A stretch of DNA of 64,000 nucleotides from Flavobacteriales bacterium (GCA_947447955.1 CANFLS010000012.1:2946-66945); one strand, 5' to 3'. Shown: positions 25,746 through 56,694, numbered from the stretch's first letter. Notes: a model not told the origin generated them from the letters alone. A program made the numbers and translations.

Positions 25746-28373
25746 TTACAGTCCCAATATTTCTTTTGCTTTTGCAATGGCATTGTCTAAGCCCGCTGCA
25801 TCTTTACCTCCCGCTGTAGCGAAGAACTTTTGTCCTCCCCCTCCCCCTTGGATAAATTTACCGCATTCTCTAACCATAGCTGATGCGTCCCAACCTTTTT
25901 CAGCCACCAAATTCTCTTCAATGTAAATGGCCAAGCCCGGTTTTTCATCTGCGGTATATCCTAAAATACATACCAGGTTAGGCAACTCTTGTTTCAATTG
26001 AAAACAAAGCTGTTTTGCGGCTTCTGCCGAAGGCAATTGCAAATTTGCCTGCACTATATTCAAACCGTTGCTTTGTTGCACAGACGACATTAATTCAGCC
26101 TTAATTTGTGCTATTTGAATGTTTTCAAACGATTCAATTTTCTTACTCAACTGATTGTTATCGGCAAATAACTTTTGAATTGCTTGTAAAATATCTTTGG
26201 GATTATTTAAGCACTCAGAAATTTCAGTCAACAATTGCAATTTTTCAGCAATGTAATTCATCGCTTTTTCATTGGTAATGGCTTCAATTCTTCTAACCCC
26301 AGCGCTCACACTTCCCTCAGAAATAAGTTTAAAGAACCCAATTTGTGAAGTATTGGCAACATGTGTTCCACCACAAAGTTCCATTGAATAAGCCCTATCA
26401 AATTCTATTACCCTAACAAAATCACCATATTTTTCACCGAAAAGCGCAGTAGCGCCCATGTCAATGGCATTTTGAATTGGAATATTTCTGTGTTCTAACA
26501 ATGCAATGCCCTCTTGGATTTTGGCATTTACCATGGTTTCAACTTGGGTAATTTCCTCATCGGTCATTTTGCCAAAATGAGAAAAGTCAAAACGCAAACT
26601 TTCATCGTTCACTAAACTTCCCTTTTGTGCAACGTGTGTTCCCAAAACCCTTTGCAAAGCACTGTGCATCAAATGTGTGGCACTGTGATTGGCAGATATT
26701 TTCAATCGGCGGTGTTCGTTCACTTTTGCAGTAAATGATTGTGAAGGATTTTTAATTGCTTGATTTGAAATCAATATATGCAATTTGTTTTCCTTGGTTG
26801 TATCTACAATTTGAATGGTTTCGCCATCTTCGCCAACCAAAATACCTGTATCACCAACCTGTCCACCACTTTCTGCATAAAACGGACAAACATCCAACAC
26901 AATTTGGGTGATGTTCTTCCCTTTTACCGTAACTGATCTATGTCTAGAAATAAGTGTGTTGCACTCGGTTTTGTCGTATCCAACAAAACTCTCCTCCAAA
27001 GATTCATAAACCACTTGCCAGTCGCCAGTTTCTTTTTGTGCATCGGCTTTACTTCTTTGCTTTTGCTCGTTAAGCAATTTCTCAAAGCCTGCAATATCAA
27101 TATCAATTGACTTTTCACGGGCAATAACCTCGGTCAAATCAATTGGAAAACCATACGTATCATAAAGTTCAAATGCCATTTCACCAGAAATTCCTTTGTT
27201 CGGATTTTCATTAAAATAAGCGGTTAATTTACCCATACCCAAACTCAATGTTCTAAAGAAAGAAATTTCCTCTTCTTTAACAACACGTTGAATGAATGCC
27301 AATTGACTGTTTAATTCTGTAAACGAATTTGCAAAATAAGCTGCCAAATCTGCCAACAATTCATGCATGAACGGCTCATTGAAACCCAAATAGCTATACC
27401 CATAACGAACAGCCCTACGCAAAATTCTACGAACCACATAACCAGCTCCGTTGTTGGCTGGCAATTGTCCATCGGCAATACACATACTCACCGCACGGAT
27501 ATGGTCGGCAATTACCCTAAAGGCAATGTCTTGAGCTTCGTTATCGCCGTAATTTTTGCCACATAAACTGGCAGTTTTTTGAATGATAAATTGGAAAATA
27601 TCTGTATCGTAATTCGACGATTTACCTTGAATTACCCTAACCAAACGCTCAAATCCCATTCCGGTATCAACATGCTGAGCAGGAAGTTTTTCCAAAGAGC
27701 CGTCGGCCTTTCTGTTAAACTCCATGAACACGTTATTCCAAATTTCAATCACTTCAGGATTGTCTTTATTTACCAATGTGGCGCCATCCACTTTTGCGCG
27801 GTCTTCATCAGAACGCATATCAAAATGGATTTCGGTGCAGGGTCCACAAGGACCGGTATCGCCCATTTCCCAAAAATTGTCTTTTTTATTTCCGTTGATT
27901 ATTTTTGATTTATCAATGCGGGCAGCCCAAATATCGTAAGCTTCTTGATCGAAGTGGATATTAGCGGCTTCGTCTCCCTCAAAAACAGATACATACAAAC
28001 GGTCTTTGTCTAGTCCATACACTTCGGTGAGAAGTTCCCACGCCCAAGCAATGGCATCGGCTTTAAAATAATCGCCAAAGCTCCAGTTACCGAGCATTTC
28101 GAACATAGTATGGTGGTAATGGTCGTGCCCTACCTCATCCAAATCGTTATGTTTTCCGCTTACTCTCAAACATTTTTGGCTATTGGCAACACGTTTTTGC
28201 GTGGCCACGGCGTTTCCTAAGAAATAATCTTTAAATTGATTCATACCGGCGTTGGTAAACATCAACGTAGGATCTCCTTTCACCACAATGGGTGCAGAAG
28301 GAACAATGCGGTGATTTTTGCTTTCGAAAAACGCTAAAAACTTTGCCTTAATTTCTTGAGATGTAAGTGACAT
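25746..28373 (-). CDS. alaS: alanine--tRNA ligase
   Basis: 875 aa. N-terminal ...FTNAGMNQFKD class-II motif. HSATHLMH and C-terminal DHHA1-type GGGG region. Confidence 0.95.
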   Translation of the reverse strand: MSLTSQEIKAKFLAFFESKNHRIVPSAPIVVKGDPTLMFTNAGMNQFKDYFLGNAVATQKRVANSQKCLRVSGKHNDLDEVGHDHYHHTMFEMLGNWSFGDYFKADAIAWAWELLTEVYGLDKDRLYVSVFEGDEAANIHFDQEAYDIWAARIDKSKIINGNKKDNFWEMGDTGPCGPCTEIHFDMRSDEDRAKVDGATLVNKDNPEVIEIWNNVFMEFNRKADGSLEKLPAQHVDTGMGFERLVRVIQGKSSNYDTDIFQFIIQKTASLCGKNYGDNEAQDIAFRVIADHIRAVSMCIADGQLPANNGAGYVVRRILRRAVRYGYSYLGFNEPFMHELLADLAAYFANSFTELNSQLAFIQRVVKEEEISFFRTLSLGMGKLTAYFNENPNKGISGEMAFELYDTYGFPIDLTEVIAREKSIDIDIAGFEKLLNEQKQRSKADAQKETGDWQVVYESLEESFVGYDKTECNTLISRHRSVTVKGKNITQIVLDVCPFYAESGGQVGDTGILVGEDGETIQIVDTTKENKLHILISNQAIKNPSQSFTAKVNEHRRLKISANHSATHLMHSALQRVLGTHVAQKGSLVNDESLRFDFSHFGKMTDEEITQVETMVNAKIQEGIALLEHRNIPIQNAIDMGATALFGEKYGDFVRVIEFDRAYSMELCGGTHVANTSQIGFFKLISEGSVSAGVRRIEAITNEKAMNYIAEKLQLLTEISECLNNPKDILQAIQKLFADNNQLSKKIESFENIQIAQIKAELMSSVQQSNGLNIVQANLQLPSAEAAKQLCFQLKQELPNLVCILGYTADEKPGLAIYIEENLVAEKGWDASAMVRECGKFIQGGGGGQKFFATAGGKDAAGLDNAIAKAKEILGL

Positions 28374-28400
28374 AATTAGAGTGCAAAGATAAACAAAAAA

Positions 28401-28449
28401 GGTTAGACGGATTAGACAGATTAGACAGATTAGACGGATTAGACAGATT
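28401..28449 (+). repeat. GATTAGACR 9-bp tandem repeat x5
   Basis: ggttagacg gattagaca gattagaca gattagacg gattagaca seen directly. Confidence 0.9.
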
Positions 28450-28480
28450 TTTGGGTTTTTGAAAATTAAACAGGCGCAGC

Positions 28481-28578
28481 CGTAAACAGCGAAGCGTCAA
28501 CAGCATAGCGTAAACTACCGAAGGTGTAAACCGCGAAGCGTAAACTTGCGAAGCAATCTAAACGCACGAAGTGCCTCA
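28481..28578 (+). repeat. degenerate 14-16-bp GCGAAGCGTAAAC-type module run
   Basis: cgtaaacagcgaagcgtcaacagcatagcgtaaactaccgaaggtgtaaaccgcgaagcgtaaacttgcgaagcaatctaaacgcacgaagtgcctcat. Related modules recur at 31.2, 34.9, 36.2, 38.9, 39.7 and 56.5 kb. Confidence 0.8.
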
Positions 28579-28582
28579 TTAG

Positions 28583-28667
28583 TTTGTTTTTTTATCATTT
28601 TAAGAGTTTGATTGGTTTGTATTTTTATCATTTTAAATGTTTTATTGGTTTGTATTTTTATCATTTT
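28583..28667 (+). repeat. about 30-bp direct repeat x2.5 (ttGattggtttgtatttttatcatttt)
   Basis: Near-identical copies at 28607-28634 and 28641-28667, plus a partial copy at 28583-28601. A related segment occurs at 34943-34968. Confidence 0.75.
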
Positions 28668-28678
28668 CATTATATTTG
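28649..28678 (+). promoter_or_regulatory. Candidate promoter for the AAA ATPase gene (-33 TTTG / -7 TATATTTG)
   Basis: TTTG at 28649-28652. TATATTTG at 28671-28678 is a perfect TAnnTTTG, spaced 18 nt from the TTTG and 22 nt before the ATG at 28700. Confidence 0.4.
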
Positions 28679-28699: not shown

Positions 28700-30040
28700 A
28701 TGTACATTCAAAGAACAATTGATACAGATCTTATACTTTGGAAAAATGCAGAACAGCGTAAACCTCTTTTAATTAGAGGAGCAAGACAAGTTGGCAAATC
28801 AACTGCTGTAAGAAATTTAGCAAAGGATTTTAAGTCCTTCATAGAAATCAATTTTGACGAAGAACCGCTTTTAAGAAACCTTTTTGAGAATATTAAATCG
28901 ATTGAAGAATTATTAGAACAACTCGCAATCATCTATCAAACTCCTATAATTGAGGGAGAAACACTAATTTTTCTTGATGAAATTCAAGCCTGCCTAACAG
29001 CAATTTCATTATTGAGATATTTTTATGAAAAAAAACCATATATCCATATCATTGCCGCTGGGTCACTTTTGGAATTTGCATTAACCGAATTGCCGTCTTT
29101 TGGCGTAGGTAGAATTCGATCTATCTTTATGTATCCATTGTCTTTCAATGAGTTTCTCATAGCAATGAACGAATCTCAATTGCTAAAATTATTAGAAAAA
29201 TCAGATAGCCAAAACCCCGTAAGTCCCATACTACATGAAAAATTGAAGCTCTATTTAAAGAAATTTTTTATTATTGGAGGGATGCCAGAAGCTGTGAACG
29301 CCTATGTGCAAAGGAAAGATTTAATTGAAGTTCAAAGAATTTTAGACGATTTAGTTATTTCAATTCAAGCAGACTTTAGTAAATACAATAAAAGAATCTC
29401 TGTTCATCGAATCCAATCAGTTTTTGAGAATCTGATTCAACAAGTTGGTTCCAAATTCAAATATTCAAGTCACTACAGCGAATTAAATGGAATACAAGTG
29501 AAACAGGTGGTTGATTTATTGGAATTGGCGGGATTGGTACATTCTGTTACTCACTCCTCTTGTAACGGAATTCCATTGGGTGCAGAATCAAATATGAAAA
29601 AACGCAAATTTCTCATTTTCGATACTGGAATTTTCCAAAGAATCTTAGGGTTAGATGTTTCATCTCTCCTATTAAATAATGAATACCAAGTTATTAATAA
29701 GGGAAACATTGCAGAGTTATTCATTGGGCTCGAATTAATAAAAACAAATTCGCCATATGAAAAATCGCCTTTATATTATTGGCATAGAGAGTCAAAAAGT
29801 AGTCAAGCTGAAGTTGATTATGTAATACAAAAGGGCGAACAAATCATTCCCATTGAAGTAAAGTCAGGAACAAAGGGAACAATGCAAAGTTTACATATTT
29901 TCATGGCAGAAAAATCTATAAATGTAGGTGTAAGATGTTCATTAGAGAATTTCGGCACAATTAACAATATAAAAATTCTGCCTTTGTATGCGATTAGTCA
30001 ATTAAGAATGGATTATCCCGAAAGCTTTCGGGAGGATTAG
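28700..30040 (+). CDS. AAA-family ATPase with DUF4143-type C-terminal domain (COG1373-like)
   Basis: Walker A LLIRGARQVGKST. Walker B LIFLDEIQ. About 440-aa architecture typical of this family. The last 10 codons (…MDYPESFRED*) are encoded by the palindromic repeat element. Confidence 0.7.
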   Translation: MYIQRTIDTDLILWKNAEQRKPLLIRGARQVGKSTAVRNLAKDFKSFIEINFDEEPLLRNLFENIKSIEELLEQLAIIYQTPIIEGETLIFLDEIQACLTAISLLRYFYEKKPYIHIIAAGSLLEFALTELPSFGVGRIRSIFMYPLSFNEFLIAMNESQLLKLLEKSDSQNPVSPILHEKLKLYLKKFFIIGGMPEAVNAYVQRKDLIEVQRILDDLVISIQADFSKYNKRISVHRIQSVFENLIQQVGSKFKYSSHYSELNGIQVKQVVDLLELAGLVHSVTHSSCNGIPLGAESNMKKRKFLIFDTGIFQRILGLDVSSLLLNNEYQVINKGNIAELFIGLELIKTNSPYEKSPLYYWHRESKSSQAEVDYVIQKGEQIIPIEVKSGTKGTMQSLHIFMAEKSINVGVRCSLENFGTINNIKILPLYAISQLRMDYPESFRED

Positions 30041-30043
30041 ACG
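30011..30043 (+). repeat. Palindromic dispersed element copy 1 (GGATTA-TCCCGAAAGCTTTCGGGA-GGATTAGAC) inside the ATPase 3' end
   Basis: 18-bp perfect palindrome at 30016-30033. Other copies are at 30146-30163, 38939-38956 and 40388-40405. Confidence 0.85.
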
Positions 30044-30181
30044 GATTAGACGGGTTAGACAGATTGGGTTTAGATGCGTAAACGCGTTTAGATGGCTTCG
30101 CCGTTTAGAAGACCTAAAGGTAGTTTAGACGGATTAGACGGATTATCCCGATAGCTATCGGGAGGGTTAGACAGATTGGGT
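30036..30181 (+). repeat. Mosaic repeat block (GATTAGACR units, tttagatgcgtaaacgcgtttagatgg, palindromic element copy 2 at 30141-30173)
   Basis: gattagacggattagacgggttagacagattgggtttagatgcgtaaacgcgtttagatgg...ggattagacggattatcccgatagctatcgggagggttagacagattgggtttag. Confidence 0.85.
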
Positions 30182-30700
30182 TTAGTTTTTGAAAAAATAC
30201 TCTTTTGTTTCCCAAAATTTGACAGTATTGTAATTCAGTTTGTGGCCCAATTTATTTTGATTGATTGGCTTACACTTTTTCAAAACAAATTTGAGACATT
30301 CATTTTCAAATTCTGAGTACATCCAACCGATTATTATCGTTTGTTTTTTTTTGTTATAATATCCCGTAGGAAGAATGAACGCAGAATCTAATTTACATTT
30401 TTTAGTAATCAACCCAATATCATAAATTGTATCGTTATCGGAATATCCTTTTATTATGGTTAAAACTAAACTATCTTTCTCAAGATAGCTTCCTGTTGAG
30501 CACAATGAACGAAAGTGAACGGATGACTTAATCACTTTTGAATCTATTATTTTGTTCACTATATCACCTTTTAAATCTTGGGGTTCCGATAATTTATCTT
30601 CCCAATTTTGAGCAAAAGAATTTACTGGGAAAAAAAGCACCAGGAAAATGATGGATATTAACTTTGACATAGTATTTAATTGGGGAACATTTTCTGTCAT
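30182..30700 (-). CDS. hypothetical secreted protein (probable start about 30670, MSKLISIIF...)
   Basis: Signal peptide ...FPVNSFAQ. AT-rich. No recognisable domain. Confidence 0.4.
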   Translation of the reverse strand: MTENVPQLNTMSKLISIIFLVLFFPVNSFAQNWEDKLSEPQDLKGDIVNKIIDSKVIKSSVHFRSLCSTGSYLEKDSLVLTIIKGYSDNDTIYDIGLITKKCKLDSAFILPTGYYNKKKQTIIIGWMYSEFENECLKFVLKKCKPINQNKLGHKLNYNTVKFWETKEYFFKN

Positions 30701-30783
30701 CGTTACAAATCTAATTCAACAATGCATTGTTAACGTTGACCCATTCTGCTAAAGCAGTTTACTAATTGTTTTTTCTCGCGGGG

Positions 30784-30978
30784 TTAAGACCCCATACCAT
30801 CTCTAAAAATGATTGCCAAACTACTAAAATAAAGCAATAGGGAAAGTAGAAATGCTAACACTAACCCTATTATTATTCTTTCGGCTTTCTTATAACTGCT
30901 ATACTTGAATACCAAAGGAACAATTAACAACGGTGTTGTGAACATCACGAACCATAATATTTGACCAAGTATATGCAT
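30784..30978 (-). CDS. small hypothetical 2-TM membrane protein (64 aa)
   Basis: Two hydrophobic helices. Clean start and stop. Low confidence that it is expressed. Confidence 0.3.
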   Translation of the reverse strand: MHILGQILWFVMFTTPLLIVPLVFKYSSYKKAERIIIGLVLAFLLSLLLYFSSLAIIFRDGMGS

Positions 30979-31084
30979 AATTTACCACCAATCACCATCT
31001 AAACTATTTCTATTCTTATTGTAGAATTGGAACCCTTTTTAAATTCACTCATAAACTATTAGATTATCACCATAAGGCGCCCCC

Positions 31085-31127
31085 ATTTCTTGATATGTAA
31101 GTGACATAATTAGAGTGTAAAGATAAA
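31085..31127 (+). other. About 43-bp duplicate of the alaS start codon, first 6-7 codons and -7 promoter region (direct repeat of 28351-28393)
   Basis: atttcttgaTatgtaagtgacataattagagtgTaaagataaa versus atttcttgaGatgtaagtgacataattagagtgCaaagataaa at the native alaS start. Confidence 0.85.
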
Positions 31128-31146
31128 TTAAAAGTTAATTAGAAAG

Positions 31147-31316
31147 TTTGTAAGAGTTTATAGAAGTTTATGAGCGTTTATAAAGGTTGGCTGGGCAAAA
31201 AAAATAAACAGCGAAGCGTCAACTACCGGAGGTGTAAACCGCCAAAGGCGTCAACGAGCGAAGCTCTTCTATACGCACGAAATGCCCAAAACCGGCGAAG
31301 CCCTAAACATTTGAAG
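31147..31316 (+). repeat. Composite repeat element: 4 x 10-bp GTTTATAARR-like units, GGCTGGG-A-run, then GCGAAGCGTCAAC-type modules
   Basis: An about 80-bp core (gtttataaaggttggctgggcaaaaaaaataaacagcgaagcgtcaactaccggaggtgtaaaccgccaaaggcgtcaac) is nearly identical to 36196-36280. Confidence 0.85.
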
Positions 31317-31381
31317 TTTATTTTATATAAATTAATTGGCTTGATTATCATAAATTCAGACATCTCTGTTTTTTAGCTTAG

Positions 31382-31915
31382 CTATTTTTGAGGGACAATA
31401 GACTGTTTTTTCTCATTTATAAAATTTACAAACTGATTAAATCTTTCATTATCTATATTAAATGCAAAAATTTGCAAGGAAATTAAAATTTTATTATAAT
31501 TTCCTACAGAATAAAAATCCAAACTGCCATTATAATTTAAATTTTCGAAATTTCCGGTTGAATTAACCATAATTAATTCAAATCCATCAAACTTCAATTT
31601 AACTTGTTCAACTCCAAAAACAACATATTTTTCATCAAAAAAATGACCTTTTTCTATTTGAATATCCTCCTTAAATTCTAATTTTAAGAGCTTACAAAAA
31701 CCTGTGTTTACATAATTTTTGTATGGAATTATCAATAATAGAAAACTAAAAATAGCCGAATTAATTATCGCAATTATTTTGAAAAAAATTGCCAAATCAA
31801 AAGGACTAGAAGAGTAAATTATAAATGATATTATTGTCAAAACTATCGAACATGGACAAATTATTAAAACAGCCCATAGACTAACCTGGATTTTATTAAT
31901 CTTAATAAATCGCAT
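31382..31915 (-). CDS. hypothetical membrane protein (3 N-terminal TM helices plus soluble C-terminal domain)
   Basis: 177-aa ORF. Very AT-rich. No recognisable motif. Confidence 0.35.
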   Translation of the reverse strand: MRFIKINKIQVSLWAVLIICPCSIVLTIISFIIYSSSPFDLAIFFKIIAIINSAIFSFLLLIIPYKNYVNTGFCKLLKLEFKEDIQIEKGHFFDEKYVVFGVEQVKLKFDGFELIMVNSTGNFENLNYNGSLDFYSVGNYNKILISLQIFAFNIDNERFNQFVNFINEKKQSIVPQK

Positions 31916-32027
31916 AATTTAAATTACAAACATTTCTCATACAGCCTTTCAAATGTTGAAAGTCTAATTTTTATGCATTTTATCATCACCGGAAATGAGA
32001 AATAATTGAACACGAAGCAAATACCCG

Positions 32028-32636
32028 TTAAAGACCTTCAGCGAAAATTTCTTGCTTTAACTGAAAACTGGAGCATTGACGAACTTGAGCATAATTTGAA
32101 TCGACAAATACAATATCTAAAAGAATATTATTGAGATAATATCTCTTCGCAGCAAATAACTCAATGTATTTTTTGAAATCCACGTTGAGTACGTTTAAGT
32201 GAGGTATATCTTCGAAAATTTTACTTTCAATCAAACCTTCATAAATCAACGAATCTTTGGTGTTAAGCTTATTTATGATTGATTCTTTAGTATTTTCCAT
32301 TATCGGACTTAATGTAAAACTCATTAGGATTTTCACTTTGGGTTGTGGCTTTTTGTATACCATTGTATCAAAAACCTTACCATACAAGCTTGAAAATCGC
32401 ACACTTAAATTGAACGATGTAGGTGAAATCAACTTATAGTGCCCTACCGTATTATCTTTAAAATTTAGAGTATCAAAATTACTGAACTTCATTAAAATTG
32501 AATCAATTTCAATAGGATAAGCAATAAATTTAGACACGGGAACTTGGGTTTTAGAAATTTGTGCCGTCGCAGTAAATGACAAAAGTCCAATCAATAAAGT
32601 TAAAACAATTATCTTTTTCATTTTTTTAATGTACAA
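32028..32636 (-). CDS. hypothetical secreted protein
   Basis: Signal peptide (LSFTATAQ). 202 aa. No recognisable motif. Confidence 0.4.
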   Translation of the reverse strand: MYIKKMKKIIVLTLLIGLLSFTATAQISKTQVPVSKFIAYPIEIDSILMKFSNFDTLNFKDNTVGHYKLISPTSFNLSVRFSSLYGKVFDTMVYKKPQPKVKILMSFTLSPIMENTKESIINKLNTKDSLIYEGLIESKIFEDIPHLNVLNVDFKKYIELFAAKRYYLNNILLDIVFVDSNYAQVRQCSSFQLKQEIFAEGL

Positions 32637-32738
32637 TGTTGTAAGTGGAAATAATCAGAATTATGTGACTCGACCCAAACAGAGGAGGTATTGATATTGT
32701 TATTATTGTTCATTTTCAAAAGTACAAATTCCGTCACT

Positions 32739-33347
32739 TTACTCAGGCAAATTCTTAATGGTTTCCTTTAACCCTTCGAAAAAATCAACATCAACGCCCT
32801 TCTTTTCCTGCAATAACTCGATTTCTTTTATGACTATTTCGACATTGATATACCTTGCTTTTGTAAAAAACAAATCGGCATTCGCTTCTTTATCAGAAGG
32901 ATGTTCTAAAATATAAGACTCTATTTCCGTCACAACTTCATTAAAACAACTATCCCTTCTATGCGTGTTACCTTCAACTTCAAAAGCCAGTGCTTTGAAA
33001 GTTTTTAAATACAAGTTCTTTTTATACGACTTAGAAAAGTCGTTGATGCTTAATAAATTAACCACCCCATATGCTTTTTTATAATCATGCAATAACATAA
33101 ATGCTGTTAATTTTAATTCGGTAAGTTTGATTTTATATTCTGAACAAATTGACGAATTTTCGTCAGTGAATTTTATTAACTGATTCAAACAACTATCATT
33201 TTTTGTTACATAATATTCATTTATTTTATTATTAGCCTGATTATAAAGAGTTTTACAATCATTGATACTAATCATTTTAGGCTGACCATTGCAAGTAAAA
33301 TTCAATAACACTAAAACGAAAAAACTTAATCTTTGTATAACTTTCAT
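32739..33347 (-). CDS. hypothetical secreted/lipoprotein, candidate polymorphic-toxin immunity protein
   Basis: Signal/lipobox-like N-terminus (VLVLLNFTCNGQ). Its start codon lies 8 bp after the stop of the RHS-core remnant. Confidence 0.35.
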   Translation of the reverse strand: MKVIQRLSFFVLVLLNFTCNGQPKMISINDCKTLYNQANNKINEYYVTKNDSCLNQLIKFTDENSSICSEYKIKLTELKLTAFMLLHDYKKAYGVVNLLSINDFSKSYKKNLYLKTFKALAFEVEGNTHRRDSCFNEVVTEIESYILEHPSDKEANADLFFTKARYINVEIVIKEIELLQEKKGVDVDFFEGLKETIKNLPE

Positions 33348-33355
33348 TGTTTCAC

Positions 33356-33580
33356 CTATTGTAAATGTCCAACTTTGTTTAAATATGGATTATTTCTCAC
33401 TGCATTGTATGGTGTTAAGCTCTTTCTTTCGTCTGTTTTCGGATCCACATTCCACCTTCTTCCTAATCTACCATCATACTCCCAAAATGTGGCGGTATAT
33501 GTTTCGTTGTTGTATACTTCTTTGTCTTTTTCTTGCGTGTTAAATCCAAACCTAAACCCGCTTCCAGCGCTGAAACTTCG
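33356..33580 (-). pseudogene. Remnant of an RHS/YD-repeat core C-terminus (no start codon, in-frame stop upstream)
   Basis: Own translation of the minus strand: SFSAGSGFRFGFNTQEKDKEVYNNETYTATFWEYDGRLGRRWNVDPKTDERKSLTPYNAVRNNPYLNKVGHLQ*. It matches the RHS core end motif (…YDxxxGRxxxxDP…PYxYxxNNP…) but stops before the usual DPxG cleavage site and toxin tip. Confidence 0.55.
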
Positions 33581-33672
33581 GTTTTTTATGAACTACCAAA
33601 AGTAGATGGGTTGTGGAGGTAGTTTAAGGGATAGTTGAACACGATTAGCGCTTTTTACTTTGTAATTTGAGA

Positions 33673-34374
33673 TCAATAAATTATATGCTTAAACTTGCCT
33701 TTGTATAACTCCAAGTATTTGGGCTTAAAACAATAGTGAACTTTACATTTATTCTTGCGCTTTTTATTTTTAAAGTATAATTCAAATTTATAAATGTAGG
33801 TGTAAATTTCATTAGTTTTCTTTGTGAAATTATTATATTGAGTACCGGATTCTTTGAAATTTAAATCACTTGCATCGCAAGGAAAGGTTTTAGAGTTGTA
33901 ATAATAACCAATTCGAATTGACATTGATTTAGAAGATAAGTATAAAGCTTTAGTTTTGAATAAAAAATAGTTTTTAATAAAATTAAAATCCCCAATTACT
34001 AAAGAATCAATATGATCCATCTTATTTGCATAATAAATTTTATCATATTCATTCTTATTCGCAGTTACTTCTTTGATTGTCAATGTATCCGTTTCGGGGC
34101 AGTATCTTACTTCAATTTTAGTTTGATTTTCGGCTGTTTCTAAAACAATTTTATCATTGTAATATTTAATAATATTTGAGTATTCTGCTGCACTTTGAAT
34201 GGATAACTTTTTCTTTTTTTCAGCCGGATCTTCATATCTAATGATTAAACAACTATCGGTTTTTTCCATAAACAAACGTTGAGGGGTCATAGTATCGTAG
34301 GGTTTTACAAAAACTTGACCTACAGATAAATTCAATTTGATGCTGAGAAATATGAATAATGTTATTTTTTTCAT
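33673..34374 (-). CDS. hypothetical secreted protein
   Basis: Signal peptide (…LSVGQ). 233 aa. Lys/Tyr/Asn-rich. No motif. Confidence 0.4.
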   Translation of the reverse strand: MKKITLFIFLSIKLNLSVGQVFVKPYDTMTPQRLFMEKTDSCLIIRYEDPAEKKKKLSIQSAAEYSNIIKYYNDKIVLETAENQTKIEVRYCPETDTLTIKEVTANKNEYDKIYYANKMDHIDSLVIGDFNFIKNYFLFKTKALYLSSKSMSIRIGYYYNSKTFPCDASDLNFKESGTQYNNFTKKTNEIYTYIYKFELYFKNKKRKNKCKVHYCFKPKYLELYKGKFKHIIY

Positions 34375-34580
34375 TATCTTTTTCTTGCAAATGCACGTAT
34401 TGATTGAGTTGTATATTCAATTGCTCTATAATTCAAACAACCACAGGTGCCTTGCTTCCAAAGCTTCGAAACCAATTGCATACTATCATCTTCGGCTTTG
34501 ATGTTCAATTTTGAATTACCGAAATATTCTATGTTATTAATCATTTTAATTACACTCAATGATTGTTTTGTATTTTTCAC
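34374..34580 (-). CDS. small hypothetical ORF (68 aa) overlapping the start of the previous gene, possibly a toxin-tip fragment
   Basis: ATGA stop/start overlap with 33673-34374. No motif. Confidence 0.2.
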   Translation of the reverse strand: MKNTKQSLSVIKMINNIEYFGNSKLNIKAEDDSMQLVSKLWKQGTCGCLNYRAIEYTTQSIRAFARKR

Positions 34581-34713
34581 TACTTACACAATCGTTATAC
34601 ACAGCTTCGCCACTTCAGTTACATTAAAAATATCGCTGATTCGGCGGTCGTAAATCAAAGTTATTATTTTATTTAGAATTCACAAACTAATTTTAATAGC
34701 CGTAAATATTTTG

Positions 34714-34968
34714 AGTTTAGATGCGTAAACACCTAAAGGTTGATTAGACAGATTAGACGGATTAGACGGATTAGACGGATTAGACGGATTAGACGGATTA
34801 GACGGATTAGACGGATTGGGTTTAGAGAAACTAAAGGTAGTTTAGATGTTGTTTTCTAATTCCAATAGAAAATCTAAACGCATGGCAATGCTTCTAAACC
34901 CTAAACGAGCGAAGCTCTTCTCAACGCACGAAGTGCCTCATCGATTTGTATTTTTATCATTTGATATC
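34714..34968 (+). repeat. Mosaic repeat block with a GATTAGACR x8 array (34742-34813)
   Basis: tttagatgcgtaaacacctaaaggtt-gattagaca-(gattagacg)x7-gattgggtttag...ctaaaggtagtttagatg...ctaaacgcatggcaatg...ctaaacgagcgaagctcttctcaacgcacgaagtgcctcat...ttgtatttttatcattt. Confidence 0.9.
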
Positions 34969-34983
34969 TTTTCTATAGGCAAT

Positions 34984-35054
34984 GAGCCGATTAAATTTAA
35001 AAATCGGCTCATTTTTTGCGTATATTTGAGCCGATTAAACCCACAAATCGGCTC
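34984..35054 (+). promoter_or_regulatory. Twin near-identical stem-loops/palindromes (GAGCCGATT-N9-AATCGGCTC) x2 immediately upstream of fic
   Basis: gagccgattaaatttaaaaatcggctc at 34984-35010 and gagccgattaaacccacaaatcggctc at 35028-35054. The second ends 1-2 nt before the fic ATG. Confidence 0.6.
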
Positions 35055-35055
35055 A

Positions 35056-36162
35056 ATGAAATACAATTGGCAACAAATTGACTGGCCCAACTTCAGCTTT
35101 AACACAGCGAAAATAGATCACTTATTACTTGATTTTATTCGCAATTCTGGCAAACTAGAGGGCGCTTTAGAAACACTAACTGAAAATAATCAATCAGAAA
35201 CTATCATTGAACTATTGGTAATTGAAGCAATTAAAACATCCGAAATTGAAGGTGAATATTTAAGTAGAAAAGATGTGGCTTCTTCCATCCGGAAAAATTT
35301 GGGCTTACTTAAAACCACTGAGAATATAAAAGATCAAAAAGCCCGAGGTATTGCTGAATTGTTGATAATGGTCCGGAATAGTTATTACAAACCATTGGCA
35401 AAAAAAGAATTACTCAATTGGCATAAATCGTTAATGAGTCATGACCCGACAATTCAGTCAGGTGAATGGCGCGAACATGAAGAACCGATGCAAATTATTT
35501 CAGGCGCATTAGGAAAAGAAAAAATTCATTTTGAAGCGCCACCGTCAAAAAATGTCCCTCAAGAAATGGAACAATTCTTTCAATGGTTTAATGGTACAGC
35601 GCCGAATCAACCCAATGAAATCATACATGCACCAATTCGGGCTGCAATTGCACATCTTTATTTTGAAAGTATTCATCCGTTTGAAGATGGAAATGGACGT
35701 ATTGGTAGAGCACTTGCAGAAAAAGCTTTGGCACAAACTTTAGGATATAATCCACTAATTAGTTTATCGTCAACAATAGAACTAAATAAAAAGGAATACT
35801 ATTATTATTTGGAAAGAGGTCAACGAAAAAACGAAATTACGGAATGGATAGAATATTTCGTAAACACAATATTGCATGCTCAAGAATTTACACAAAAACT
35901 CATTCATTTCACCATTCAAAAAACACAAATCTTCGATACTTTTTCAACACAACTCAACGAGGCGCAATTGAAGGTGGTAAAGCGTATTTTAGAGCAAGGT
36001 CATGAGGGATTTATTGGTGGTATGAATGCGGAAAAGTATATGCGCATATCAAAGGTTTCAAAAGCAACAGCTACCAGACATTTACACCAACTCGTTGAAA
36101 TTGGTATCTTTCAAATTGAAGGGAAAGGAAGAGCCACGAGGTATCGTATTAATGTTAATTAG
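35056..36162 (+). CDS. Fic/DOC-family protein (DUF4172 N-terminus, class II TxxxEG inhibitory motif, C-terminal wHTH)
   Basis: MKYNWQQIDWPNF start. TSEIEGE. Fic motif HPFEDGNGRIGR. C-terminal HTH (KATATRHLHQLVEIGIF). The ORF-track N-terminal extension back to 34846 is a translation of repeats and is rejected. Confidence 0.8.
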   Translation: MKYNWQQIDWPNFSFNTAKIDHLLLDFIRNSGKLEGALETLTENNQSETIIELLVIEAIKTSEIEGEYLSRKDVASSIRKNLGLLKTTENIKDQKARGIAELLIMVRNSYYKPLAKKELLNWHKSLMSHDPTIQSGEWREHEEPMQIISGALGKEKIHFEAPPSKNVPQEMEQFFQWFNGTAPNQPNEIIHAPIRAAIAHLYFESIHPFEDGNGRIGRALAEKALAQTLGYNPLISLSSTIELNKKEYYYYLERGQRKNEITEWIEYFVNTILHAQEFTQKLIHFTIQKTQIFDTFSTQLNEAQLKVVKRILEQGHEGFIGGMNAEKYMRISKVSKATATRHLHQLVEIGIFQIEGKGRATRYRINVN

Positions 36163-36164
36163 AA

Positions 36165-36322
36165 GGTTTATAAGCATTTATAAAAGTTTATGTGCGTTTA
36201 TAAAGTTTGGCTGGGTAAAAAAACAAACAGCGAAGCGTCAACTACCGGAGGTGTAAACCGCCAAAGGCGTCAACCGCCAAAGGCGTCAACTACCGCAGGT
36301 GTAAACCCACCGTAGGTGTAAA
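36165..36322 (+). repeat. Composite repeat element (4 x 10-bp GTTTATAARR units, GGCTGGG-A-run, 16-bp GYGTMAAC-N-CCRNAG units x about 6)
   Basis: ggtttataagcatttataaaagtttatgtgcgtttataaagtttggctgggtaaaaaaacaaacagcgaagcgtcaactaccggaggtgtaaaccgccaaaggcgtcaaccgccaaaggcgtcaactaccgcaggtgtaaacccaccgtaggtgtaaac. Confidence 0.85.
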
Positions 36323-36354
36323 CAAAAAGGACGCCCTAAAGCGTCCAATTTTGT
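36323..36354 (+). terminator. Hairpin terminator between the convergent fic and pckA genes
   Basis: aaaaaggacgccctaaagcgtccaattttgtt: stem GGACGC/GCGTCC, flanked by an A-run and a T-run. Could act bidirectionally. Confidence 0.5.
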
Positions 36355-36375
36355 TATTGTTGTTATTGTTGTTGT

Positions 36376-37965
36376 TTAAGCTGTAGCCATTCTTGGAGCA
36401 GCGGCCTTGATTTCGTCGCTAGATCCATCGGCAAATTTTTGGAAATTGTCGTTGAACAATTTAGCCAATTTCTGACACTGTGCGTCGTATTCAGCACCGT
36501 CAGCCCAAGTATTTCTTGGATGTAACAATTCTGAAGGAACGTTAGGACAAGCATCAGGCATTGCAAATCCGAACACAGGGTGATTGGTGAAAGAGCCATC
36601 CAATTGTCCCTCCAAAGCCGCAGTAATCATGGCACGTGTGTAAGACAATTTCATTCTGCTACCTACACCGTAAGCACCACCTGACCAACCAGTGTTGATC
36701 AACCAAACGTTGATATTTGGGTGTGCAGATAATTTCTCTCCCAACATTTCTGCATATTTCGCAGGATGCAATGGCAAGAAAACTTGTCCAAAGCAAGCAG
36801 AGAAAGTAGCTTGAGGTTCAGTAACTCCCGCTTCAGTACCCGCAACTTTCGCAGTGTAACCAGAAATAAATTGATACATTGCTTGGCCTGGAGTTAACTT
36901 AGAAATTGGAGGCAAAACACCAAAAGCATCTGCCGTTAAGAAGAAAATATTCTTAGGAGCATCGCCAATAGATGGTTCTGCAATATTGTCGATATAGTCA
37001 ATAGGATATGCAACACGGGTATTTTCGGTTACTGAAATATTGTCGTAATCAGGGGTATTTGTTCCCTCAAAGAAACGAACGTTTTCAACCAAAGCACCAG
37101 GCTTAATTGCATTCCAAATTTGAGGTTCTTTTTCTTCAGTTAAGTTTACGCATTTTGCGTAACAACCACCTTCAAAATTGAAAACAGTAGAATCAGACCA
37201 TCCGTGTTCATCGTCACCGATTAATTTACGGTTAGGATCTGCACTCAAAGTAGTTTTACCGGTACCGCTCAATCCGAAGAATACAGCAGTGTCGTTGTCC
37301 TTACCAATATTTGCTGAACAATGCATGCTCAATACACCTTTTTCTTGTGGAAGGATGTAATTCAACACACTAAAGATACCTTTCTTAATTTCACCAGTGT
37401 AACCACTACCACCAATTAAGATGATTTTCTTAGTTAAATCTACAATGGTAAAGTTATGTTGGCGCGTACCGTCAATTGCAGGATCAGCCATAAATGAAGG
37501 AGCCGCAATAATTACCCATTCAGAAGGTTGGGTAGCGATTTCAGTTGCTGTAGGACGTAAAAACAAGTTCTTAGCGAACAAATTTTGGTACGCACTTTCA
37601 GTAACTACTTGAATATTTAAACGATAAGCTGGATCAGCACAAGCATATGCATGACGAACAAAGATTTCTCTTCCTTCTAAATGCGCTACTACCCTGTTTA
37701 ACAACGCATCGAATTTTTCAGATTCAAAGGGCTGATTTACAGTACCCCACCATGCGGTGTCGGCTGTTTTTGCATCTTTTACCAAGAATTTGTCTTTAGG
37801 ACTTCTTCCAGTAAACTCACCCGTATCGGCAGCCAATGCGCCTTTATCTGTGATTTGACCTTCATTTCTCTCGAGAGCTTTCTCGATAAGCTCATCGGTG
37901 GTTAAGTTTTCAAAAACTTGCTTTGCATGCGATTTTATGTTCGCAATCAATGCCTCATTACTCAT
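36376..37965 (-). CDS. pckA: phosphoenolpyruvate carboxykinase (ATP)
   Basis: About 530 aa. GEFTGRSPKDKF near the N-terminus. The kinase P-loop GLSGTGKTTLS. Start taken at MSNEALIANI (37965) rather than the ORF-track extension to 38004. Confidence 0.95.
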   Translation of the reverse strand: MSNEALIANIKSHAKQVFENLTTDELIEKALERNEGQITDKGALAADTGEFTGRSPKDKFLVKDAKTADTAWWGTVNQPFESEKFDALLNRVVAHLEGREIFVRHAYACADPAYRLNIQVVTESAYQNLFAKNLFLRPTATEIATQPSEWVIIAAPSFMADPAIDGTRQHNFTIVDLTKKIILIGGSGYTGEIKKGIFSVLNYILPQEKGVLSMHCSANIGKDNDTAVFFGLSGTGKTTLSADPNRKLIGDDEHGWSDSTVFNFEGGCYAKCVNLTEEKEPQIWNAIKPGALVENVRFFEGTNTPDYDNISVTENTRVAYPIDYIDNIAEPSIGDAPKNIFFLTADAFGVLPPISKLTPGQAMYQFISGYTAKVAGTEAGVTEPQATFSACFGQVFLPLHPAKYAEMLGEKLSAHPNINVWLINTGWSGGAYGVGSRMKLSYTRAMITAALEGQLDGSFTNHPVFGFAMPDACPNVPSELLHPRNTWADGAEYDAQCQKLAKLFNDNFQKFADGSSDEIKAAAPRMATA

Positions 37966-38093
37966 ACAGTTTATTTTCGTAAATTTGTACTGCAAAGTTA
38001 CCAAAACGTTAATCGCATTGGTTAATTTTTATCTTTTTTTTAGTAAACGGATTTACGCACATTATATTTACACAATTTAATTACTATCGAGCA

Positions 38094-38847: not shown

Positions 38848-39058
38848 GGCTTCGCCTGTTGACACCTACGGTAGTTTACACCTTCGGTAGTTTAATTTAG
38901 GCACTCAACTCAGATATCTGTCTAATCCGTCTAACCCTCCCGATTGCTATCGGGATAACCTGTCTAATCCCGAAAAGTTTACGCTTCGCTGTTTAATTAA
39001 ACCTAAAATCTATCAACAAAAAATCTGTCTAATCTGTCTAACCCGTCTAATCTGTCTA
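38848..39058 (-). repeat. Mosaic repeat block in reverse orientation (GTCTAATC units, palindromic element copy 3 at 38928-38965)
   Basis: ...ggtagtttacaccttcggtagttt...atatctgtctaatccgtctaaccctcccgattgctatcgggataacctgtctaatccc...tctgtctaatctgtctaacccgtctaatctgtctaatccc. The last unit supplies the msrA stop codon. Confidence 0.85.
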
Positions 39059-39715
39059 ATCCCTTTTATACTTTTTCATATACTCCTCAAACTTCTTCAC
39101 CTTTTCCCCCACCACATAAATGCAGTACGGTTGCTCAGGATTGTTTTCAAAGTAGTTTTGGTGATAGTCTTCGGCGTCGGAATATTTTTCTACGGGTAGA
39201 ATTTCTGTTACAATTTTACCGTCCCACAGTTTGGCATCTTCTGCAGCTTTTAAGCTGTATAAAGCAAGTTCCTTTTGTTCGTTGTTGCGATAATAAATGC
39301 CACTTCGATATTGGGTTCCTTCGTCGTTGCCTTGTTTATTCAAAGTTGTAGGATTATGAATACGCCAGAAAACGGTTAGAATTTCTGCAAATGAGGTTTT
39401 GGTAGTATCGAACATGATTTTCACCACTTCCACACAACCTGTATAGCCTGAGCAGACTTCGCGGTAGGTAGGATTGGCAATTTTACCATTGCTGTATCCA
39501 CTCACCACATTCAATACTCCTGGCAAACGTCTGTAAACGGCATCTAGACACCAAAAGCAACCACCACCCAACACGCAAGTGTCAACTTTGGTTGGATCAA
39601 TTTCATTTGAATTTTCCATGTTTTTTTTGTTTGTGCTTTCTACCAAAGAGGAATTCTTACTCCCACAAGATAAAAAACCGATTGAAATGATAAATATAAA
39701 TATGTTTTTTAACAT
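39056..39715 (-). CDS. msrA: peptide-methionine (S)-S-oxide reductase MsrA (lipoprotein form)
   Basis: Lipobox (IGFLSCGSK). GGGCFWCLDAVY catalytic motif. Confidence 0.9.
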   Translation of the reverse strand: MLKNIFIFIISIGFLSCGSKNSSLVESTNKKNMENSNEIDPTKVDTCVLGGGCFWCLDAVYRRLPGVLNVVSGYSNGKIANPTYREVCSGYTGCVEVVKIMFDTTKTSFAEILTVFWRIHNPTTLNKQGNDEGTQYRSGIYYRNNEQKELALYSLKAAEDAKLWDGKIVTEILPVEKYSDAEDYHQNYFENNPEQPYCIYVVGEKVKKFEEYMKKYKRD

Positions 39716-39726
39716 CCTTTTGTTGG

Positions 39727-39876
39727 TTTAGAGGCACTTCGTGCGTTTAGGGGAGCTTCGCACGTTTAGGGTTTAGAGTGCCATCAATATTCAGAAGCAA
39801 TTGCTAAACGACCGGCAGGTCTTCTAAACGTCGGAGACATCTAAACGCGTTTACGCTACTAAACTCACTTTTCTGT
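39727..39876 (-). repeat. Mosaic repeat block (reverse-orientation copies of ctaaacgcacgaagtgcctc, cgtttagaagacc and gcgtaaacgcgtttagatg modules)
   Basis: gaggcacttcgtgcgtttagg...ggtcttctaaacg...catctaaacgcgtttacgc...ctgtctaaccc. Confidence 0.8.
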
Positions 39877-40203
39877 CTAACCCTTAGTCCGATACCCCTT
39901 AGCAGCCAAAAACGCTTTCACCTTATCCAACGTATCTCCTTGAATAATGATGTCGCCTTCTTTGCTGGTTCCGCCCACACCGCAATGGTTTTTGAGGCTT
40001 TTTTCTAACTGTTTTAAATCGTCAGATTTGCCAATAAATTCTTTAATCACAATACAAGGTTTGCCATTGCGAACTTCTCTTCTCACATATAATTTCTGTT
40101 GCGACGGCTCCAAAGTGTCTTGTTCCTCGCTCTCAGTGTCATACTGATAATCCGGATTTGTACTATAAACAATCCCCGATTTGTTTTTGTTTTTGTTGCT
40201 CAT
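39877..40203 (-). CDS. yciH: SUI1/YciH-family translation initiation factor-like protein
   Basis: 108 aa. An N-terminal Lys/Asn-rich tail, then a SUI1-like core (…YVRREVRNGKPCIVIKEF…GVGGTSKEGDIIIQGD). Confidence 0.55.
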   Translation of the reverse strand: MSNKNKNKSGIVYSTNPDYQYDTESEEQDTLEPSQQKLYVRREVRNGKPCIVIKEFIGKSDDLKQLEKSLKNHCGVGGTSKEGDIIIQGDTLDKVKAFLAAKGYRTKG

Positions 40204-40212
40204 ACTTTTTTT

Positions 40213-40333
40213 GGGTTAGAAGGGTTAGACCGATTAGACGGATTAGACAGATTGATTGTGATTAGACAGATAAATTTGAATAGGCAGATAAATATTTAAA
40301 AAATCTAAATCGATTTTAGATAAACGATAAACA
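40213..40333 (+). repeat. Mosaic repeat block (GGTTAGA/GATTAGACR units and others)
   Basis: gggttagaagggttagaccgattagacggattagacagattgattgtgattagacagataaatttgaataggcagataaat... Confidence 0.8.
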
Positions 40334-40375
40334 TATTTCATGAATTTTAACTTTTACTCTTGCAATTGAAAAAAA

Positions 40376-40432
40376 TCTGTCTAATCTTCCCGATAGCTAT
40401 CGGGATAACCCTTCTAATCTGTCTAATCTCTG
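40376..40432 (-). repeat. Palindromic dispersed element copy 4 flanked by GTCTAATC units; supplies the SDR stop codon
   Basis: atctgtctaatcttcccgatagctatcgggataacccttctaatctgtctaatc. Palindrome at 40388-40405. Confidence 0.85.
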
Positions 40433-41172
40433 TAAATCACTCCTGCCGCAGGTTGTGCCGTTGGCATAATTACTAAGTCGTTAATGTTTACGTGGGCTGG
40501 TCTTGAAACTGCGTAATAAACAGCATCGGCAATATCATCGGCAATGAGGTTTTCAAATCCCTCATAAACCTTTTTAGCCCTGTCTTTGTCGCCATCAAAT
40601 CGTACTTCGCTGAATTCGGTTTCAACAGCACCAGGATGAATCCCTGTTACCTTCACTTTGAACTCAGCCAATTCAATGCGCATGGCTCTGGTTAAAGCGT
40701 CAACGGCATGTTTGGTAGCACAATATACATTGCCATTCATATAAACATCTTTCCCTGCTATAGATCCAATATTCACAATATGACCACTTTTTTTATCCTT
40801 CATCCAATTGGCAACAACCTTTGAAACATAAAGTAATCCTTTGATATTGGTATCAATCATGGTATCCCAATGCGTTGTATTTCCATTGAAGAACTGTCCC
40901 AAGCCCCAAGCCAAACCGGCATTATTTACCAAAACATCAATATTTTTCCATTCTGCTGGCAATGAATTCAATGCGAGATTAACTTCTTCGTCACTTCGTA
41001 CGTCAAAACACAAGGTATACACTTTTTCAGAACCTATCTCTTCTTGAAACTTCAACAAACGCTCTGCCCTTCTTCCCGTTACGATTACTTTGTAATTGTT
41101 TTCCAATAACAACTTTGCAGTTGCCAATCCAATTCCACTGGTACCACCAGTTATTAATGCTATTTTACTCAT
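40423..41172 (-). CDS. SDR-family NAD(P)-dependent oxidoreductase
   Basis: MSKIALITGGTSGIGLA Rossmann motif. NNAG. Catalytic YCATKHAV (YxxxK). The ORF-track upstream extension to 41289 uses a non-ATG start and is rejected. Confidence 0.8.
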   Translation of the reverse strand: MSKIALITGGTSGIGLATAKLLLENNYKVIVTGRRAERLLKFQEEIGSEKVYTLCFDVRSDEEVNLALNSLPAEWKNIDVLVNNAGLAWGLGQFFNGNTTHWDTMIDTNIKGLLYVSKVVANWMKDKKSGHIVNIGSIAGKDVYMNGNVYCATKHAVDALTRAMRIELAEFKVKVTGIHPGAVETEFSEVRFDGDKDRAKKVYEGFENLIADDIADAVYYAVSRPAHVNINDLVIMPTAQPAAGVIYRD

Positions 41173-56379: not shown

Positions 56380-56390
56380 GGGAATTCTAA

Positions 56391-56503
56391 GGTTTATAAG
56401 GGTTTATGAAGGTTTATAAAAGTTTATAAGGGTTAAAACTAAACGCATGGCAATTCTATGGTTTATAAGTGTTTATGAAGGTTTATAAAAGTTTATAAGG
56501 GTT
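56391..56503 (+). repeat. 10-bp-phased GTTTATAARR blocks: a 44-bp unit (4 x 10 bp) present twice with a 69-bp period
   Basis: ggtttataagggtttatgaaggtttataaaagtttataagggtt at 56391-56434, and ggtttataagtgtttatgaaggtttataaaagtttataagggtt at 56460-56503. They are separated by aaaactaaacgcatggcaattctat. Confidence 0.9.
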
Positions 56504-56523
56504 AACAAAGTAAGTGAATAAAA

Positions 56524-56677
56524 TAAACAGCGAAGCGTAAACTACGAAGTGTAAACTACGAAGTGTAAACTACGAAGTATAAACTACGAAGTATAAACTA
56601 CGAAGTATAAACAGCGAAGCGTAAACAGCGAAGCGTAAACAACGAAGTGTCAACAACGAAGTGTAAACAGCGAAGCG
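56524..56677 (+). repeat. 14-bp tandem repeat x11 (TAAACWRCGAAGYR)
   Basis: taaacagcgaagcg, then taaactacgaagtg x2, taaactacgaagta x3, taaacagcgaagcg x2, taaacaacgaagtg, tcaacaacgaagtg, taaacagcgaagcg. Perfect 14-bp register. Confidence 0.95.
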
Positions 56678-56694
56678 TCAACAATAAAATAAAT

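Follow-up and report, generated by a model that had tools for sequence, protein, structure and literature searches.

The question raised by this locus is what seven short open reading frames (ORFs) without recognisable domains, lying one after another on the same strand in a Flavobacteriales bacterium, once belonged to and what they may still do. The ORFs occupy positions 30182-34580 of a 64,000-nt stretch of assembly GCA_947447955.1 (CANFLS010000012.1:2946-66945), and this whole stretch is referred to below as the window. The region is very probably a decayed array of RHS orphan toxin/immunity modules, in which the toxins were deleted and the immunity genes were kept, within a variable hotspot between pckA and alaS. 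This reading is supported because the families of ORF5 and ORF4 each follow one specific RHS toxin family by 3-9 nt, because 3' relics of those two toxins and a disrupted leader persist in the window, and because the syntenic locus upstream of alaS in a sister genome (L018) is an array of RHS C-terminal toxin (RHS-CT)/immunity modules with the same leader. The parts of the array are listed in reading order along the minus strand, from pckA to alaS (lengths in amino acids, aa), as follows:

ORF7: 34374-34580, minus strand, 68 aa from a GTG start (56 aa according to the gene callers)
ORF6: 33673-34374, minus strand, 233 aa
ORF6-ORF5 gap: 325 nt, containing the RHS leader remnant
ORF5: 32739-33347, minus strand, 202 aa
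ORF4: 32028-32636, minus strand, 202 aa from a TTG start (197 aa from the ATG at 32621, gene callers)
ORF3: 31382-31915, minus strand, 177 aa
ORF3-ORF2 gap: 403 nt
ORF2: 30784-30978, minus strand, 64 aa
ORF1: 30182-30700, minus strand, 172 aa (probable start M11)

An earlier note on this DNA had placed seven consecutive minus-strand ORFs without domains in this interval, and both the placement and the lack of domains held: Pfam, NCBIfam, PADLOC and PHROGs gave no significant family match for any of the seven. Its claim that nearly all the products are secreted, lipoproteins or membrane proteins was accurate for six of the seven, which carry hydrophobic N-termini (ORF7 is the exception); the N-termini of ORF1, ORF4 and ORF6 are signal-peptide-like, and ORF2 and ORF3 have two transmembrane-like segments apiece. 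The AT-richness that it described was also confirmed, with a guanine plus cytosine (GC) content of 29.55% against 36.3% for the whole window, and when the window was sampled in 50-nt steps, the array was its most AT-rich 4.4 kb. All the ORFs are intact and identical across contigs of several metagenomes and metagenome-assembled genomes (MAGs), and contig CANHIT010000017 of MAG GCA_947460465.1 matches the array region with 99.6% identity over 8.3 kb. A motif scan located TAnnTTTG motifs upstream of ORF7, ORF4 and ORF1, which are only suggestive as promoters; a sigma-70 promoter scan was also run, with a consensus that is uninformative for Bacteroidota.

Toxin partners of ORF5 and ORF4

A search of 5.8 billion protein clusters returned a family of only 13 ORF5 relatives (51-100% identity, all of about 200 aa), in which the lipobox cysteine Cys19 is invariant. 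Gene neighbourhoods were obtained for seven relatives (related loci are denoted by L numbers). In four distinct contexts on five contigs (L011, L012, L091/L092 and L093), the ORF5 homologue begins 4 nt after the stop codon of a toxin gene. The linked toxin is the same domain of about 220 aa (DDWVxNxxTGEYxWMDNV...GGWWVxNSAGxxTPVVYHPLTPxPQTFK), either joined to the end of an RHS core or present as an orphan fragment of one, and L012 is itself an array of such toxin/immunity modules. Pfam and PDB profile searches returned no relative of this toxin family. Copies of the domain were always paired with an ORF5-type lipoprotein. The toxin copies and relics relevant to ORF5 and ORF4 were as follows:

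ORF5-type toxin domain copies: L011 500-1579; L012 4330-5067; L091 3-758; L093 1-684
ORF5-toxin 3' relic: 33348-33386, minus strand, last ~9-13 codons, reading IFKQSWTFTIGET
ORF4-type toxin domain copies: L100 14-928; L094 3-2078; ~230 aa, each paired with an ORF4-type protein
ORF4-toxin 3' relic: 32622-32692, minus strand, ~13-22 codons, reading ...NTSSVWVESHNSDYFHLQHCTLK, toxin stop codon mutated

The ORF5-toxin relic fills the 39 nt before the ORF5 ATG, and it matches the toxin ends TFKHSWTFPTR*, TFKQKWTFPNR* and TFKHNWKFTTP*, which lie at the same distance from their ATG. With the end of a leader (...RNNP, described below) and this toxin tail ahead of ORF5, one module has thus undergone an internal deletion, which began just past ...RNNP, stopped about 10 codons short of the toxin stop and left ORF5 untouched. 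Two other toxin-less arrangements were found among the relatives: in L089/L090 the ORF5 homologue is preceded by the start-less last third of the toxin only, and in L013-L017 the toxin is absent and a leader fragment ending ...SFGSDFRF is fused straight to the ATG of a homologue 75% identical to ORF5. The deletions in the window, in L013-L017 and in L089/L090 are different, and the toxin was therefore lost three times independently, each time with the ORF5-type gene intact. On these comparisons, ORF5 is well supported as a predicted lipoprotein and orphan immunity gene for the DDWV... RHS-CT toxin family.

For ORF4, a phmmer search of the whole library (1.84 billion representatives) returned three proteins: ORF4 itself, a 64%-identical fragment, and P0017, which is 28% identical over 166 aa (E 1e-6 in the library, 6e-15 pairwise). 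A scan of viral contigs for ORF4 was empty. P0017 begins 9 nt after a YD-repeat protein of at least 691 aa with a C-terminal toxin domain (L094), and a further RHS fragment follows it. The 64%-identical homologue begins 3 nt after an RHS-CT module (L100/L101), whose leader RSFSAGSGLRFGFNTQEKDKEVYNNNETYTATFWEYDGRLGRRWNVDP is almost the same as the remnant in the window. The two ORF4-linked toxins are 53% identical over 293 aa and share the signature 'DKTDKFYY...GYGHWA...GHxNHxHLQ'; Pfam and PDB profile searches with this family were empty.

The conserved motifs of the ORF4-linked toxin domain are GYGHWA, YGHxxGxNxD and GHxNHxHLQ. Their His and Asp residues hint at a metal-dependent hydrolase, without profile support. 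A LAS-type zinc peptidase was considered on the basis of the HxxGxNxD and HxH motifs and is not claimed, as no profile backs that identity.

DNA homology between the window and L100/L101 (76% over 312 nt) begins 41 nt upstream of the ORF4 ATG, and this onset falls within the toxin end ...PGHANHLHLQKCTL* of L100/L101 (window frame ...NTSSVWVESHNSDYFHLQHCTLK). The TTG-start frame of ORF4 reads through the toxin relic, and the true start is therefore probably the ATG at 32621 (197 aa). From its linkage and relic, ORF4 is a well-supported candidate for an orphan immunity gene, with a signal peptide, directed at a second RHS-CT toxin family.

The same evidence bears on whether the locus is pure genomic debris, that is, a dying RHS locus whose immunity ORFs have simply not yet been hit, are unexpressed and give no protection. 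A pseudogenised leader, vanished toxins, a GC content that falls to 23.6% in ORF3 (the lowest within the array), the lack of relatives of ORF6 and ORF3, and the failure to find RHS or secretion genes adjacent to the array would all suit a locus in decay. Against this, the deletions took the toxins almost to the base and spared every downstream ORF, toxin loss with an intact ORF5 homologue arose three times independently, and the ORFs are identical on contigs from several metagenomes and MAGs. ORF5 is moreover under purifying selection: the ratio of non-synonymous to synonymous substitution rates (dN/dS) is 0.24 between two toxin-less copies (window and L013) and 0.25 between toxin-linked copies (0.24-0.29 overall), values that cannot prove present-day selection, since the branch includes time before the toxin was lost. 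We consider pure debris quite unlikely.

The leader remnant and the sister locus at alaS

The start-less remnant of an RHS core C-terminus that had been reported from one intergenic gap is present between ORF6 and ORF5:

Pseudogenised RHS orphan-module leader: 33387-33645, minus strand, end of an RHS core, ...FGSS*KT/RSFSAGSGFRFGFNTQEKDKEVYNNETYTATFWEYDGRLGRRWNVDP...RNNP

The remnant lacks a start codon and contains a single in-frame TAA and a 1-nt deletion. Relative to the L018 leaders (alignment A2), its ATG region is gone, and the 1-nt deletion makes the TAA and the frameshift. The open frame at 33359-33592 spans 78 codons from stop to stop without a usable start (translation FIKNRSFSAGSGFRFGFNTQEKDKEVYNNETYTATFWEYDGRLGRRWNVDPKTDERKSLTPYNAVRNNPYLNKVGHLQ*). 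The remnant matched TIGR03696 (RHS repeat-associated core) with an E of 6e-4 and 20.2 bits, a score under the cut-off of 32.5 for that model, and it also matched RHS core ends at 71 loci, with 35-77% identity, in species-representative genomes that are nearly all from Bacteroidota. At the DNA level its identity is 88-89% with four module leaders of L018 and 85% with that of L100; the window-wide RHS/YD comparison gave 77-90% identity to the L018 leaders. No further RHS/YD sequence was present within the 64-kb window, in line with the claim that it holds no full toxin gene. Additional toxin or leader relics were sought at 29900-35000 with 6351 ORFs of related loci, and beyond ORF5, the leader and the known matches only noise was obtained. 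One leader alone thus survives in the array, and the other ORFs are without any leader. Assignment of the remnant to a toxin of the L018 module-3 type was tried and dropped, because the tail upstream of ORF5 fits the cognate toxin of ORF5 itself.

L018 comes from the MAG 'Bacteroidetes bacterium Jr-16oct17-287' and is 93% identical to the window in nucleotides over alaS and its upstream region (alaS dS 0.089, dN 0). Directly upstream of alaS it has an RHS ORF (...YELSNHLGNV...DYYPFGSS...) that remains open at the contig edge, four more leader-bearing modules after this ORF and four genes in the immunity position, and the array ends at alaS. The proteins in the immunity position have signal, lipoprotein or transmembrane N-termini, and the GC content of the array is 31% against 42% for alaS. 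The leader is all that the two loci share, with no toxin or immunity gene in common. As the L018 array stands at the same alaS site, a near-identical genome holds an armed version of the locus. The fourth L018 module (4674-5530) seems disrupted, with a leader ORF (92 aa) and a toxin ORF (233 aa, GTG start) in different frames.

The synteny also bears on a second alternative, namely that the array is a horizontally acquired immunity-only island, imported as a unit and not formed in place, as are the acquired interbacterial defence (AID) and recombinase-associated AID (rAID) clusters of gut Bacteroidales. The array is indeed immunity-only, AT-rich and bounded by repeats, it lies beside strain-variable SoFic and PDC-S01 cassettes, and in L013 an ORF5 homologue and a Fic gene are linked in a different context (rpmE and a penicillin-binding protein, PBP). 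However, L018 has at this chromosomal site a live RHS array whose leader is the same, the toxin tails left in the window show that the site once had toxins, the repeat modules also occur between housekeeping genes, and the adjacent genes (alaS, the ATPase, Fic and pckA) include no recombinase or integrase. Import of a ready-made island is very improbable.

The earlier note had proposed a degenerate toxin/immunity array of the kind that builds up downstream of RHS-type toxins, and had looked to syntenic homologues with unrelated functions as the outcome that would speak against it. The outcome was the opposite, the relative at the same site being an RHS-CT/immunity array, and the proposal is supported by three independent lines of evidence, the toxin linkage, the relics and the synteny with L018.

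Remaining ORFs and flanking cassettes

The stop codon of ORF7 overlaps the start of ORF6 as TAATG, and the same junction occurs in the toxin/immunity pairs L018 mod1/imm1 and L012 147aa/111aa. Two codons ahead of the ORF7 GTG there is an in-frame stop, the product has no hydrophobic segment or export signal, and no relatives were found in family searches or among the ORFs of related loci. Because it is analogous to the two proven toxin-tail relics, ORF7 is read as a third: it is probably the 3' relic of the toxin gene of ORF6 and not a gene of its own.

On 10 contigs from metagenomes or MAGs, ORF6 shows 100% conservation. It retrieved itself only among the 5.8 billion protein clusters, plasmid tblastn was empty, and its single-sequence AlphaFold2 model (predicted local distance difference test, pLDDT, 33) was unusable. 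For ORF3, viral, metagenome and plasmid (tblastn) scans gave no relatives. By position, ORF6 with its signal-peptide-like N-terminus and the membrane-anchored ORF3 would be orphans in an immunity-like place. ORF1 showed a weak, collinear match (26% over 98 aa; phmmer E 8e-5 against 6351 ORFs) to a 171-aa protein that begins 8 nt after a 914-aa RHS toxin (L020). A viral-contig scan with ORF1 and a metagenome scan with the ORF1-L020 alignment were both empty. ORF1, with a signal peptide after the probable start M11, is a possible, weakly supported immunity gene. ORF2 was called as a gene on two contigs only and its coding status is uncertain; limited searches found no relatives.

The genes on either side of the array were as follows:

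pckA: 36376-38004, minus strand, outer flank
Fic/DUF4172 gene: 34846-36162, plus strand, Pfam matches; PADLOC SoFic E 1e-47
AAA_14/DUF4143 ATPase: 28700-30040, plus strand, Pfam matches; PADLOC PDC-S01 E 9e-139
alaS: 25746-28373, minus strand, outer flank

The ATPase matches the phage-defence candidate PDC-S01 as a single protein over its full length. In L004, a strain variant from the same population, the Fic cassette is missing and pckA abuts ORF7 (junction of 36319 with 34936), and in L013 a Fic orthologue (82% nucleotide identity) is convergent to the ORF5 homologue in another context (adjoining rpmE and a PBP). Given the SoFic-like and PDC-S01 flanks and this variation between strains, the pckA-alaS interval is a variable defence hotspot.

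Near alaS a second trace of rearrangement was detected, together with the intergenic repeats:

Fossil alaS upstream copy with the first ~8 alaS codons (MSLTYQE...): 31085-31290, minus strand, ~200 nt, between ORF3 and ORF2
Mosaic intergenic repeat modules: 28385-28670, 30001-30177, 31131-31290, 34708-34962, 36151-36364, 38907-39076, 39731-39883, 40189-40440 and 56377-56718

The fossil block shares 83% identity with the genuine upstream region of alaS in L018 and is closer to that region than the window's own upstream region is (alignment A4). A 49-nt direct repeat (28351-28399 and 31085-31133, 92% identical; wider blocks 28351-28580 and 31085-31290) covers the promoter-proximal region and first 8 codons of alaS, and it brackets a 2.7-kb segment with ORF2, ORF1 and the ATPase. 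The segment is absent from L018, and no integrase is present. In sequence it looks like an insertion at the 5' end of alaS that rebuilt the start of the gene; the fossil block would then mark the former junction of array and alaS, the old array having ended at ORF3 and the segment having entered later.

The repeat modules had been described as separating the genes. This holds for both ends of the array (30001-30177 and 34708-34962) and for the ORF3-ORF2 gap (31085-31290), and does not hold for the remaining gaps. Among their components are 9-nt GATTAGACG tandems, TTTATAAAC-type and GCGTCAACTACCGGAGGTGTAAACC units, a TCCCGAWAGCWWTCGGGA hairpin unit and a 14-nt GTAAACTACGAAGT tandem. The modules are found in either orientation, border variable cassettes, and also lie between housekeeping genes (38.9-40.4 kb and 56.4-56.7 kb).

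These surroundings suggest a third alternative, in which not all seven ORFs encode immunity: ORF1 and ORF2 above all, and perhaps also ORF3 and ORF6, would be anti-phage accessory proteins or lineage-specific envelope proteins at a defence hotspot. SoFic-like and PDC-S01 genes flank the array, the 49-nt alaS repeat brackets ORF1, ORF2 and the ATPase as one 2.7-kb insertion, and homology evidence is absent for ORF2, ORF3 and ORF6. On the other side, PADLOC and PHROGs were negative for all seven ORFs, PDC-S01 was matched by one whole-length protein, ORF1 weakly matches a protein in the immunity position behind an RHS toxin, and ORF3 and ORF6 sit inside a block bounded by proven relics. The alternative is doubtful, with a real chance of applying to some of these ORFs.

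A broader proposal would make the pckA-alaS interval an undescribed cassette-exchange hotspot, in which anti-phage (SoFic, PDC-S01) and immunity cassettes are swapped at mosaic repeats without an integrase, and in which the ORF5 and ORF4 partners are two RHS toxin/immunity families without Pfam or PDB relatives. The 2.7-kb insertion, carrying its own copy of the alaS 5' end, would be a possible case of such exchange. We regard this proposal as unlikely.

Probable decay of the array, known systems and significance

For the decayed module array, the following history is proposed. In the ancestral module, as still in a close relative, the end of the RHS core would have been copied in a conserved leader (...GFRFGFNTQEKDKE...WEYDGRLGRRWNVDP...), after which came a variable toxin CT and then a small immunity gene whose start lay only a few bases from the toxin stop. 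The lineage of the window would have lost the full-length RHS gene from the head of the array and, by non-homologous deletions, the toxin-coding parts, leaving one disrupted leader, toxin tails before ORF5 and ORF4 (probably also ORF7 before ORF6) and intact immunity ORFs; ORF2, ORF1 and the PDC-S01 ATPase would have arrived later as the separate 2.7-kb segment between array and alaS. The predicted exported products are the ORF5 lipoprotein, ORF4, ORF6 and ORF1 with signal peptides, and the membrane-anchored ORF3, and these export signals suggest that the cognate toxins act in the periplasm or envelope. ORF1, ORF3 and ORF6 may be immunity genes like ORF5 and ORF4, and the array genes are predicted to be expressed and protective. 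The retained proteins would bind and neutralise matching toxins sent into the envelope by neighbouring toxin-making relatives; as they would neutralise the toxins of kin without making them, they would be orphan immunity genes, giving protection without offence.

Several points weigh against this reading. The dN/dS values of ORF5 carry the limit given above, and the leader remnant scored under the TIGR03696 cut-off. In the confident AlphaFold2 model of ORF5 (13-sequence alignment, pLDDT 87) the chain forms an all-alpha solenoid of TPR-like type. Searched against the PDB with Foldseek, this model retrieved generic TPR proteins only (E >= 0.009, TM-score < 0.5); the fold is generic, and no known immunity protein was matched specifically. 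For ORF1 the match is weak. No relatives could be detected for ORF3 and ORF6, nor for the doubtful ORF2 and ORF7, and the assignment of these four draws on their position, strand and size together with export signals and composition. Finally, no PAAR/VgrG, type VI secretion system (T6SS), type IX secretion system (T9SS) or full RHS gene was found beside the array.

Arrays of orphan rhs-CT/rhsI and cdiA-CT/cdiI modules downstream of full-length rhs or cdiA genes have been described (Poole et al. 2011, PMC3150448; Koskiniemi et al. 2014, PMC3967940); their orphan toxins usually lack starts (PMC3150448, PMC3967940, PMC5361080) and their orphan immunity genes can remain expressed and protective (PMC3150448). 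The plan in common is a leader that copies the end of the delivery protein, then a variable CT and a small immunity gene, with start-less leaders and polymorphism between close strains, and L018 fits the description fully. In contrast to classical orphan modules, which keep their toxin CTs, the window retains two toxin 3' ends, with ORF7 maybe a third, and no variable toxin domain after the leader. Its single leader is a pseudogene, no full-length rhs gene heads the array (upstream of ORF7 are the SoFic-like gene and pckA, or pckA directly in L004), and a small immunity gene abutting one toxin family was established for two of the seven ORFs (ORF5 and ORF4). The host is an uncultured freshwater Bacteroidota and not an enterobacterium.

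In V. cholerae T6SS clusters, arrays of orphan immunity genes arise by effector displacement (Kirchberger et al. 2017, PMC5361080), and strains that have lost an effector keep the immunity, plausibly as resistance to kin in which the effector persists (PMC5361080). There, as here, immunity genes outlast the cognate effector and are homologous to paired immunity genes in other strains (for ORF5 and ORF4, with no effector in the 64-kb window), and the benefit proposed is protection from kin that retain the old effector. Intact ORFs are common to the whole array, and purifying selection was measured for ORF5 alone. The Vibrio arrays lie at the 3' end of a T6SS cluster behind a live effector, whereas the window has neither a live toxin nor secretion genes nearby, and loss here was by internal deletion that left toxin tails, replacement by an incoming module not being seen.

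AID and orphan immunity clusters of gut Bacteroidales (PMC12247911, PMC10470768) are likewise immunity-only clusters of Bacteroidota against toxins that the bearer does not produce. They are mobile or recombinase-associated and aimed at T6SS effectors, whereas the array in the window is chromosomal, syntenic with the RHS array of a relative and decayed in place, with no adjacent tyrosine recombinase or mobile-element context.

The kind of locus, an orphan immunity array, is thus already known, and no new mechanism is revealed. The locus provides a clear natural example of toxin loss with immunity kept, in which one immunity family has undergone three different deletions in related lineages. 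To the orphan immunity known in enterobacteria, vibrios and gut Bacteroidales, it adds a case in uncultured freshwater Bacteroidota. Functions that can be tested are now available for at least two families of hypothetical proteins, and two unannotated RHS toxin domains are indicated.

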